Positions 27,001 to 30,000 of a DNA stretch of 47,972 nucleotides are shown here, in pieces. A program made the position numbers. The DNA comes from a virus. Taxonomy: Duplodnaviria > Heunggongvirae > Uroviricota > Caudoviricetes. Numbering within the stretch: position 1 is the first letter of the stretch; each line of letters begins with the position of its first letter. The DNA is taken from IMG/VR virus record IMGVR_UViG_2531839374_000006. The stretch is one strand, 5' to 3'.

Positions 27001-30000
27001 TTCTTCCGACGAGTCATGAGAGCGCTACCTGCTTGACCGTGCATTTCAAATGAGAACTTCTCAGCAGCCGCGACACGGTTTTGCATTTCGCTGATTGCCA
27101 TATCGGTCAGGCCAGAGAAATCGAGGAGGTTAATGTCCTTCCCGCCCTCAAGCGCCGTCATGTGGTCATACACCTGCGCCTGAAGCTCATAGCTGTAGCT
27201 CATTGCCATGAGGCAAGCTTCACGCTTGGGAAAATTGCAAATATCCCTCTCCACAACACCACCTGTTCCGTTGATATAGGTATCAGTTGCAAAAAATTTT
27301 GCAGCTGCATCCCCGAGGACCCTGGGTACTTTCTTCATGAAACTGCGGTGTTCGAGTTTGCGATATTTCTTACAGGGGAACGCAAGCCCCTCCGCCTCCG
27401 CTTTGGATTTCCGATCAGCATTAATGTAATCCACCATCTCAAGACTGCTCATGGTCGGGTATTCGCCAGAAGGAAGAACGGTTAATGATTTGTTCATGTC
27501 GGTATTTCCTTTAGAAAGTTGAACCTGTTCGCACAGAAAAGCCGTCCCCGAGAGGTCCTCACCTATACGGCAGTTCTCAGGCTCAGCTTTCTGAAAGACT
27601 CGGGATTGTTACGCGCTGCGATGCGCGGTTTACTGCGGACATATAAAAGCCCCGCAAGTGCGAGGCTCATTAAATGGACTTTGTGATTTGCAAAAAAATT
27701 TATTTCAGGCACTGAGTCCTGATGTACTCCTGAAGCATTCTCAATGCTGTCTGGTCGCTGATGATTCCGTCCCGGATACCGAGAACGTTTCGTCCAGCAA
27801 CTGGAGAGAGTTCGACGGTGGCATCATTGCCCATGCCGGAGGCGCTGGAGGTTTCGGCTGAGGATGGCACAGGGCATTTTCCTTTGACGAGCACCCGACC
27901 ACCATTATCAAGCTTGCGCCGAAGAGCATCATTTTCAGCTTTCGCATCAGCTAACTCCTTCGTGTATTTAGCATCGAGTGCATCAGCATCACGCTGGCGC
28001 TGCTGCATGTCAGTAATGGTTGCGTTCGCCAGCTTCAGTTCTCTTGCGTTTTTGTCGCGCTGCTCTTTGTAGGTAATGGCGTTATCACGGTAATGATTAA
28101 CAGCCCATGACAGGCGGACGATGATGCAGATAACCAGAGCGGAGATAATCGCGGTGACTCTGCTCATTGCTGCCCCCACAAACAGACTTCACGCTCAATC
28201 TCACGACGGGTCATCAGCCCTTTCCATTGCTTACCGCCAGCATATGTCCAGCGACGTAGCTGGTCACATGCGCCTTTGATATCGCCCTGGTTTATTTTGC
28301 GAAGAAGCGTCGATGTTCTGAAATTGCCAGCGCCCACGTTGTAAACGAACGAGTAAAGAGCGCCGCGCGTTGTTTCCGGTATATCGACTTTGATGTACGG
28401 GTTAATTTGTCTGGCGACAGTGGCAAGGTCTTTATTCAGGAGAGCTTTGCATTCTGCTTCGGTATACGTTTTACCAGGCATGATGTCTTTTCCGGTGTGT
28501 CCGTGACATACAGTCCATACACCAATGATATCTTTGTATGGTATGTAGCTGACACCTTCCAGACCATCGTTACCACCTGGGCCAGTGATTAACACAGATG
28601 CTATAGCAACAGCCCCGCCACCAATAGCAACTGCAACAGCCTTGCGTAATGATGGCGACATTATTCACCTCTCGCAGCCTTACGCTTATCTTCTCTTATT
28701 TTGAAATACAGATTCGTCAGATAAGTCAGAAGCCCCAGAAGCAGACTTCCCAGCACACCAATCGCAGCCCACTGTGATGGACTGACCTGATCCAACCACT
28801 GCAAAAACCAGTAGCCGGCACTGCCGGCGGAGGTGCCGTAGGCAATGCCTGTTGATATTTTTTCCATCTGATACATATCCCGCCCCCCCGACAGACCTGT
28901 GCTATCGGAAAGAAAAAAGGCCATCAGCAAAACTCTGATGGCCTGAATCACCTTTACCAATATTGTATGAAAAAACACGCACGACTAATTGACAATAATT
29001 TTCATTTCCATTAAAAAAGATCGCGTAGCATTCTTAATTCATGAGGAACTTTACCCGCCAGCAATCTGAGTAGCGAAAGCTGTTCATCCCCAATGTTTTT
29101 GCTGGCGGGTCCTTTTTTCTACGGTCCTCCTCCCCGGAGGGGGGCATTTCATTATTTTTCTAATCGTTACTGGTGAGAAGGCGGAAGAAAAAGCCAGTTC
29201 TTCGCCCCTAAATAACAGCATGATTCCAGTCCATGCAAAATCTGATTTCCAGCTCACACATACCGAGCGCTGTACAAAAAACCGCCAGCCAAGGCAGTTA
29301 AGAGTGTGTTCCCGGGGTTTGCTTAGAATATTTTGTAAGTTGTCCGAAGAGATATTTACAACACCAGAATGATGAATCATCAGTCCCCTGCCAGAGGTTC
29401 ACTACGTAACCTGACCGACAATGCACCATTCTGGTGCTGAAAAAAGAGCACTGGAACTGCAACAAAACAACATCACAGAACAGGAGATGGTAAGGAGTCA
29501 GACATTCCCACACAATATTGTGTCAGTGCAAATAACAACCTTCGTCTCAAATCTCGCTGGAGCGGGCAGCGGGAATCGAACCCGCATCATCAGCTTGGAA
29601 GGCTGAGGTAATAGCCATTATACGATGCCCGCATATGGTGCCGACTACCGGAATCGAACTGGTGACCTACTGATTACAAGTCAGTTGCTCTGCCTGCTGA
29701 GCTAAGTCGGCGCTGGCCCACCACCGAGGACTCGAACCTCGCACCGTCAACTTAGAAGGTTGATGCTCTATCCGGATGAGCTAGTGGTGGTTGGTGGCCC
29801 TTGCTGGACTTGAACCAGCGACCTGGCGATTATGAGTCGCTCGCTCTGACCAACTGAGCTAAAGGGCCGGAGGCAGAATAATAACCATATGTCATCACAT
29901 CTGCAAACTCATCTGACCACCAGCACGTTTAACGTCCTGTGCCGTTTTTCAGGTATAAAAAACCCGCTCAATGGCGGGTTCTGGTAAAGTTCATGCGCTT

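Follow-up and report, generated by a model that had tools for sequence, protein, structure and literature searches.

A four-tRNA gene cluster with operon-like architecture in the late leader region of a lambdoid ipaH prophage

The DNA stretch of IMG/VR virus record IMGVR_UViG_2531839374_000006 (Caudoviricetes; 47,972 bp, in its entirety referred to as the window) represents a lambdoid prophage with a myovirus-type tail. Exactly four tRNA genes are predicted in the window by ARAGORN, all of them on the (-) strand and packed into a cluster between a Q-like late antiterminator gene and the lysis genes. The organization, origin and possible role of this cluster are described here. In 5' to 3' direction of the late strand the four genes are:

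29792..29868 (-), tRNA-Ile2 by prediction (CAU, ileX/ileZ type), first in the operon (ARAGORN; Rfam 70.5 bits)
29714..29790 (-), tRNA-Arg (UCU) on a phage-specific scaffold (ARAGORN; Rfam 56.4 bits)
29636..29711 (-), tRNA-Thr (UGU), near-copy of host thrU (ARAGORN; Rfam 69.8 bits)
29558..29632 (-), tRNA-Gly (UCC), exact copy of host glyT (ARAGORN; Rfam 64.9 bits)

Four tightly packed tRNA genes at 29558-29868, with spacers of 1-3 nt, had been proposed in an initial annotation of the sequence, and all four are called by ARAGORN as well as by Rfam. Since the scores obtained with model RF00005 range from 56.4 to 70.5 bits (gathering score 29; E values 1e-9 to 1e-13), the calls are far beyond chance. 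The spacers measure 1, 2 and 3 nt in 5' to 3' order, the 3' CCA is encoded in all four genes, and each anticodon loop comprises 7 nt with U33 and A37 (CUCAUAA, CUUCUAA, CUUGUAA and CUUCCAA, respectively).

For comparison with the host, the K-12 tRNA genes were taken from NC_000913. The CAU gene is indeed ileX-like, as previously assumed, sharing 69/77 positions (90%) with ileX and 74/77 with the CAU tRNA of Shiga toxin (Stx) phage 2851, versus 54/77 (70%) with metT and 48/77 with fMet. Its acceptor stem (GGCCCUU/AAGGGCC) retains the pairs C4-G69 and C5-G68, both of which are needed by E. coli TilS (PMC1635315). Furthermore, PGAP applies the label tRNA-Ile to a 100%-identical CAU gene in E. coli FDAARGOS_943 (locus L003) and also to the CAU gene of this cluster in VL40. 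Based on the likeness to ileX, the TilS determinants and the labels given in relatives, the gene is to be regarded as a tRNA-Ile2 gene, the product of which would carry lysidine at position 34 and be charged by isoleucyl-tRNA synthetase.

In case of the second gene, identity amounts to 58/77 with host argU, 64/77 with the Arg(UCG) tRNA of Stx phages and 65/77 with variants called Lys(UUU). The acceptor stem CCACCAC/GUGGUGG conforms to a scaffold (CCxCCAC) that is common to the Stx-phage Arg(UCG) tRNA and the Lys(UUU) variants. The identity set of E. coli arginyl-tRNA synthetase consists of A20, C35, U36 or G36, and A73 or G73. By sequence reading, the window's tRNA possesses this set with A20 (D loop AUCCGGAUA), C35 and U36 (anticodon UCU) as well as the discriminator G73. 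Across 13 variants of the Arg-type scaffold, 96.3% of cells are paired and compensatory changes occur in 4 pairs. Accordingly, the tRNA-Arg looks functional.

The third and fourth genes resemble host genes far more closely: tRNA-Thr shares 74/76 positions with K-12 thrU, with an unchanged anticodon arm and both differences confined to the D arm, and tRNA-Gly is identical to K-12 glyT (75/75). Similarity to the host thrU-tyrU-glyT operon reaches no further than 1-2 nt past the mature tRNA ends, and the cluster lacks tyrU (BLAST). Capture of this operon at the DNA level, together with its flanks, was considered and discarded, since homology is limited to the mature tRNAs plus 1-2 nt; in clusters consisting of Thr and Gly only, the upstream DNA is unrelated. 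A precise deletion could be read from the 3-nt spacer UAU between the two genes (host U, then AU), but such a match is a coincidence of about 1 in 64. As judged from sequence identity, two of the tRNAs (Ile2, Arg) are of phage lineage and the other two are copies of host genes (thrU, glyT), which makes the module chimeric. Being copies of host genes, phage Thr and Gly add gene dosage and no new decoding capacity.

Directly upstream and downstream of the cluster, the following signals for its own transcription were found:

29878..29907 (-), putative tRNA-operon promoter: -35 TTTGCA/TTGCAG, spacing of 17-18 nt, -10 TATTAT, 9-nt discriminator TCTGCCTCC (consensus scan)
29274..29299 (-), terminator-like hairpin with U-run about 260 nt past tRNA-Gly, candidate end of the tRNA transcript (scan)

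The 9-nt discriminator TCTGCCTCC is GC-rich and reaches the 5' end of the first tRNA. Taken alone, the promoter-like site is not significant in the consensus scan. Hexamers and spacing are kept in 7/7 aligned loci and in 33 of the 35 distinct upstream sequences (from 101 listed loci), the spacer sequences and flanks of which have diverged or are unrelated. Downstream on the late strand, 41/72 distinct sequences contain a hairpin followed by a T-run at a distance of up to 300 nt, compared with 13 in shuffled sequences and 10 in the reverse complement. The hairpin of the window at 29299-29274 (-10.7 kcal/mol, z = -0.5) is weak by itself; UMNK88 has a hairpin and T-run at the same position with differing stem bases. 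For a moron, an own promoter and an own terminator would be expected, for which the conserved promoter architecture and the terminator excess (41/72 vs 13 and 10) provide candidates. Conservation of the promoter upstream and enrichment of terminators downstream give the cluster the appearance of an independent stable-RNA transcription unit inside the late leader; with a conserved promoter of its own, it would not need Q-dependent read-through. A conserved small RNA in the 3' trailer after tRNA-Gly was dismissed, as only about 20 of 115 listed loci have the trailer of the window and the downstream DNA is very diverse.

The surrounding leader and its flanking genes comprise:

30076..30630 (-), Q-like late antiterminator gene (DUF1133; Pfam, PHROG)
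30031..30067 (-), putative late promoter pR' (TTGCAT-17-TTCAAT) right after the Q-like stop codon (sequence reading)
29953..29982 (-), tR'-like intrinsic terminator, 9-bp stem then UUUUUU, past the Q-like gene (-13.1 kcal/mol, z = -2.9)
29917..29924 (-), Chi site GCTGGTGG past the tR'-like terminator and ahead of the tRNA promoter (sequence scan)
28908..28944 (-), strong intrinsic terminator, 10-bp stem then UUUUUU, just before the holin start (-18.5 kcal/mol, z = -3.2)
28661..28876 (-), P21-type class II holin, first lysis gene past the cluster (Pfam Phage_holin_2_1, E = 4e-35)

The gene order on the late (-) strand is NinB-like, YbcO-like, DUF1133 Q-like gene, hairpin with U-run, Chi, tRNAs, 681 bp, holin, lysozyme and Rz. 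The Q-like gene matches Pfam DUF1133 with E = 2.8e-101, reaches 26.5 bits with Phage_antitermQ (cut-off 26) and matches PHROG 753 ("anti-termination protein Q-like") with E = 3e-76. A homologue of the 71-aa holin is annotated by PGAP in the related prophages L001 and L002. Hence, the late-strand cluster is preceded by the Q-like gene and a tR'-like terminator and followed by the holin-lysozyme-Rz cassette, in agreement with the position past a Q-like gene and ahead of the lysis genes given by the initial annotation. The further statement that tRNAs and toxin genes occupy this slot in Stx phages is corroborated by phage 2851, in which Q is followed by Ile/Arg/Arg tRNAs and stx2A/B; in UMNK88 and PhiR47_1, too, the tRNAs lie in this slot.

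The tR'-like hairpin with T-run is found at the equivalent place in L001, L003, UMNK88 and PhiR47_1 with differing loop sequences, and the pR'-like site is conserved in L001 and L003, which have the Q type of the window. From pR' to the tR'-like terminator, a short RNA of about 75-80 nt would be formed, comparable to lambda 6S, StxS and IsrK (PMC7547250). A sub-threshold isrK-like Rfam match (14.8 bits, E = 2.4) is located at 30030-29957. Chi occurs twice in the window, which is within chance expectation and led to its rejection as a statistical signal; its positional conservation alone is noteworthy, GCTGGTGG being present at the equivalent position in L001, L003, UMNK88 and PhiR47_1, the flanks of which have diverged. 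A conserved role of this site in recombination or against RecBCD, close to a mosaic joint, is conceivable. The match between the window and the prophage of CFSAN029787 (18-19 kb; L002 6969) stops precisely where the CAU tRNA begins (29869), and upstream of its tRNAs the latter prophage carries another Q type and a DNA methyltransferase gene. Differing Q modules and lysis cassettes meet at the tRNA module, which serves as a mosaic joint.

Codon counts were based on ORFs called greedily and compared with the annotation of the sister prophage, with a sample of 113 K-12 genes serving as host reference. For the codons read by the four tRNAs with an A in third position, the frequencies per 1000 codons are:

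AUA: phage core 7.7, K-12 sample 4.2
AGA: phage core 7.2, K-12 sample 2.4
ACA: phage core 16.0, K-12 sample 6.6
GGA: phage core 14.6, K-12 sample 8.5

The host values of 4.2 and 2.4 accord with the earlier description of AUA and AGA as rare. By phage/host enrichment, AUA, AGA, ACA and GGA rank 7th, 2nd, 3rd and 9th of 61 codons, and pooled they account for 45.5 per 1000 codons in the phage core vs 21.8 in the K-12 sample (odds ratio 2.15, p = 2e-39). A comparable situation was described for Shigella phage SfI, which has an ACA frequency of 17.3 vs 7.1 and a Thr(UGU) tRNA gene downstream of Q (PMC3636060).

The cluster is best interpreted as a four-tRNA stable-RNA operon, most likely raising the supply of scarce tRNAs for the phage and other AT-rich acquired genes; we assign this interpretation a probability of roughly 0.6. 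Situated within the late-operon leader, past the Q-like gene and the tR'-like terminator and ahead of the holin gene, the operon would be transcribed in the lysogen from its own sigma-70 promoter, which has a GC-rich discriminator as at stable-RNA promoters, and would end at its own terminator. After induction, Q-modified, terminator-resistant polymerase starting at pR' would also transcribe the cluster, then from many replicated copies. Because of the spacers of only 1-3 nt and the encoded CCA, cleavage by RNase P at each 5' end and short 3' trimming would probably suffice to free the four tRNAs. Each of them is predicted to duplicate a low-copy host isoacceptor (in K-12: ileX and ileY, argU, thrU and glyT, respectively), covering the codons AUA, AGA/AGG, ACA and GGA/GGG, and the raised supply would allow efficient translation of phage and AT-rich acquired genes.

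Several observations weigh against this interpretation. At 1.7- to 3-fold, the excess of these codons is modest, and it is a general mark of lower-GC3 mobile DNA, so that the match between tRNAs and codons may be unspecific, and ACA and GGA are not truly rare codons. The prophage is defective due to IS2 and IS630-family insertion sequence (IS) elements; therefore, there can at present be no selection in this prophage for improved phage growth. Finally, in the sister prophage L003 the fourth tRNA looks to be decaying, implying that selection on it is not absolute. This gene (18211-18285), called tRNA-Val by PGAP, is a derivative of glyT with UCC changed to UAC, A38G, one deleted base in the 3' acceptor strand and no CCA. 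Its interpretation as an anticodon switch was rejected, the acceptor-stem deletion and loss of CCA being read as decay.

A narrower variant of codon supply would be that the tRNAs are kept for translation of AT-rich virulence cargo in the lysogen, i.e., as a cargo-specific lysogenic conversion trait. With respect to such cargo, the window contains one full ipaH gene (587 aa, 779-2542 (+)), the C-terminal end of a second one at its edge (1-351 (+)), and an AT-rich island at 33240-35040 (-) with 39.8% GC, encoding a helix-turn-helix (HTH) and M78-peptidase protein and a PHROG-5786 protein (function unknown). AUA and AGA are 2.7- to 8-fold more frequent in ipaH and the island genes than in the K-12 sample, expression in the lysogen is plausible given the cluster's own conserved promoter, and the cluster is intact though the prophage is defective. 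However, no difference between ipaH and the phage core is seen with the four codons pooled (odds ratio 1.13, p = 0.46), GGA is not enriched in ipaH, and the two island genes exceed the core for AUA and AGA only (odds ratio ~3, p ~1e-3), in a sample of just 613 codons. Moreover, the same cluster is present in hundreds of E. coli prophages without ipaH and is annotated in free phage genomes, e.g., vB_EcoS-689R5, vB_EcoM-606R7 and PhiR47_1, which argues that it was not assembled for ipaH. The match between tRNAs and codon demand is thus real, but a property of the whole prophage and not of the cargo, and cargo-specific retention appears improbable. The earlier suggestion that the cluster may support AT-rich phage or moron genes is partly borne out, in that the codon excess belongs to the prophage as a whole; relative to the core, the anticipated codon enrichment in cargo genes was recovered for AUA and AGA in the island, whereas ipaH does not surpass the core.

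The cluster family is widespread. Among 5,426 complete E. coli genomes, 603 contain it (at least 80% of the 311-bp query covered), ten of them at 99% identity or higher, and in CFSAN029787 one copy is 100% identical over the full 311 bp. Among 120 listed IMG/VR loci holding the Thr-Gly junction, the commonest version is CAU-Lys(UUU)-Thr-Gly (51/120 loci), followed by CAU-Arg(UCU)-Thr-Gly as in the window (29/120) and by Thr-Gly alone (about 21/120); a few loci have odd loops in the second slot. Each of the window's exact tRNA alleles was encountered 22-24 times among these loci, and the Gly tRNA is identical in 100/116 listed IMG/VR copies. Nearly invariant tRNA sequences are accompanied by 72 distinct downstream flanks among 115 listed loci, therefore indicating selection or gene conversion.

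The second slot (e.g., L008 2870-2946, L009 2658-2734 and many of the IMG/VR loci L010-L129) displays a single scaffold with varying anticodon loops. Besides CUUCUAA (Arg-UCU) of the window, there is CCUUUAA, called Lys-UUU and having C33 in place of the near-universal U33; other loops are short or odd and are called Phe, Leu, "Stop" or ambiguous. Clusters consisting of Thr and Gly only (L018, L028, L064 and others) contain an element of about 65 nt (GGTTCCGAGGG...CCCGAGGAACCA) about 70 nt upstream of tRNA-Thr, which has its own promoter-like site and is not called by ARAGORN. This element could be a degenerate or non-canonical tRNA-like gene.

An alternative reading of this conservation is a neutral passenger, i.e., a cluster which has no current function in this degraded prophage and merely looks conserved by way of recent acquisition and conversion of Thr and Gly with host thrU and glyT. 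The (near-)identity of Thr and Gly to the host genes within unrelated flanks agrees with such a passenger, as do the IS insertions in the prophage, the decaying fourth gene of L003 and singleton damaging variants among the listed IMG/VR copies. It is quite unlikely, though, considering that the phage-specific Ile and Arg tRNAs, for which no host template for conversion exists, are identical in 22-23 independent listed loci, that pairing in the Arg-type scaffold is kept by compensatory changes, and that the promoter hexamers persist across diverged lineages.

Variation in the Thr gene points to a further explanation outside codon supply. The P2 Old protein kills lambda-infected cells mainly by cutting host thrU-type tRNA-Thr(UGU); rescue by phage Thr(UGU) tRNAs requires both an altered motif and a shortened stem, and over-expression of host-type tRNA-ThrU confers little or no protection (PMC12445682). 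Correspondingly, the cluster could hold spare parts for counter-defence, i.e., tRNAs that replace host tRNAs cut by defence nucleases of competing elements. The cluster family always has Thr(UGU), in a lambdoid phage, and this is the tRNA class which is targeted by P2 Old and with which phages rescue the cell (PMC12445682). A Thr(UGU) allele with G42U/U43C (UCAUC) is present in L001 (~6780), L002 (~6780), L003 (18163), L025, L095 and L109, by which the 3' CNG motif and two stem pairs are lost; it also occurs on other Thr backgrounds. In L123, the stem is fully compensated (GAUGA/UCAUC) and devoid of both CNG motifs. The UCAUC allele and the L123 stem fit the published two-factor rule of resistance. 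In addition, the anticodon loop of the second slot varies and is most often called Lys(UUU), and the anticodon stems of the window's Ile and Arg tRNAs deviate from those of the corresponding host tRNAs. Systems cutting tRNA-Lys(UUU) include PARIS and PrrC, and phage Lys and Tyr tRNAs act against PARIS and retron-Eco7; no nuclease is known to target the Ile2, Arg or Gly(UCC) tRNAs.

In the window itself, however, the anticodon arms of Thr and Gly equal those of thrU and glyT: the Thr stem ACUGA/UCAGU is the host arm, and the paired CNG motif and A37 are kept in both tRNAs, contrary to what resistance demands. The Thr allele of the window is predicted to be sensitive, as over-expressed host-type ThrU barely protects (PMC12445682), and a spare part identical to the nuclease target cannot resist. 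For the present cluster, counter-defence is hence unlikely; the Thr alleles are suggestive for the family, and are no evidence on the window's own genes. One may nevertheless speculate that the family has been shaped mainly by conflict with tRNA-cleaving nucleases and not by codon supply, Thr(UGU) enabling lambdoid prophages to survive interference of the P2-Old type, and the sensitive allele of the window being either ancestral or re-converted from the host. The second slot would then be a rapidly evolving scaffold with switching anticodon loops. This broader proposal is rather unlikely.

Between tRNA-Gly and the holin gene lies an interval of 681 bp without any Pfam-supported ORF. Two (-) ORFs of 98 and 71 aa within 28979-29557 were rejected, since they have no Pfam match, PGAP leaves them out of near-identical E. 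coli records, and homologues covering part of the interval differ by indels. The initial annotation was therefore right in finding no credible ORF at 28979-29557, but the interval is not empty, as it contains terminators and a conserved structured non-coding element. This element extends over 28987-29258 with features on the (+) strand, antisense to the late genes, at 28989-29017, 29053-29118 and 29124-29160: a promoter-like TTGACA-17-TAAAAA is followed by two hairpins, each with a U-run (fold -44.3 kcal/mol, z = -5.3). Homologues with about 85% identity occur in 1,427/5,426 E. coli genomes, 643 places being on plasmids; the element, which never carries an annotation, lies beside iss and Rz remnants in the one plasmid inspected. 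No match was obtained among 50,697 phage records or in Rfam. It may represent either a small RNA of about 95-135 nt, antisense to the late genes, or the relic of a terminator block. At permissive E-values, Rfam returned only the tRNAs and chance-level matches for 28850-30150.

On a larger scale, the prophage is collinear with and 98-99% identical to the yebY-adjacent prophage of E. coli FDAARGOS_943 (L003), which is bounded by the integrase on one side and ipaH on the other. IS2 (7552-8825 (+)) interrupts the baseplate J gene, and the IS630-family element is inserted in the nin region, its transposase gene (35193-36224 (-)) adjoining the AT-rich island. Other RNA elements detected by Rfam in the prophage are RalA (203.9 bits, 46989-47167 (-)), sok (120.1 bits, 33055-33230 (-)) beside a Hok ORF (32905-33117), a C4 antisense RNA (76.7 bits, 42225-42312 (+)) and isrK (59.6 bits, 42124-42200 (+)).

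The tRNA module is common and already annotated by PGAP in public genomes, and tRNA genes after Q are known from Stx and Shigella phages. Thus, the cluster as such matters little; of use are its chimeric origin, the conserved promoter, the series of Thr alleles and the structured element in the interval. Given an own promoter, prophage tRNAs may alter the minor-tRNA pool of lysogens, including Shigella and enteroinvasive E. coli (EIEC) with their AT-rich virulence genes. The agreement of the sister Thr(UGU) alleles with the rule of resistance to P2-OLD offers a way to separate codon supply from counter-defence, and if the conflict with nucleases were to apply, these natural alleles would render testable why temperate coliphages carry tRNAs.

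Among known systems, the host operon thrU-tyrU-glyT-thrT-tufB is the source or conversion partner of Thr (74/76) and Gly (75/75), whereas the phage cluster has neither tyrU and thrT nor any of the host spacers and flanks, and its Thr and Gly genes are separated by 3 nt. Nuclease-resistant phage tRNAs (Thr6/Thr21 against P2-OLD) share the Thr-UGU class and the lambdoid carrier with the window and the CNG change and shortened stem with the sister alleles; the window's Thr differs from them by its host anticodon arm and predicted sensitivity to cleavage. Phage SfI is likewise lambdoid and has a Thr(UGU) tRNA at the same position together with an ACA excess, but possesses another, smaller tRNA set, the likeness being one of position and content. 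Genes for tRNAs downstream of Q were described for SfI (Asn-GUU, Thr-UGU) and also for Sf6, ST64T, PS3 and P21 (PMC3636060).

Stx phage 2851 resembles the window in the succession of Q/tR', tRNAs on the late strand and late genes, in its CAU tRNA (74/77), in the CCxCCAC scaffold of the second slot (64/77) and in the promoter architecture. It differs by having three tRNAs (Ile2, Arg-UCG and Arg-UCU) followed by stx2A/B, while the window has Arg-UCU on an argN-like scaffold, copies of thrU and glyT, and no toxin genes. In phage 933W, the Stx-phage tRNA cluster is called ileZ-argN-argO; a literature search on ileZ, argN, argO and tRNAs of ipaH prophages yielded nothing useful. Prophages of EIEC and other E. 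coli as well as annotated phages contain the same four-tRNA module; of these, the EIEC relatives L001-L003 are distinguished from the window by the UCAUC allele of Thr, and L003 additionally by its decayed fourth gene.

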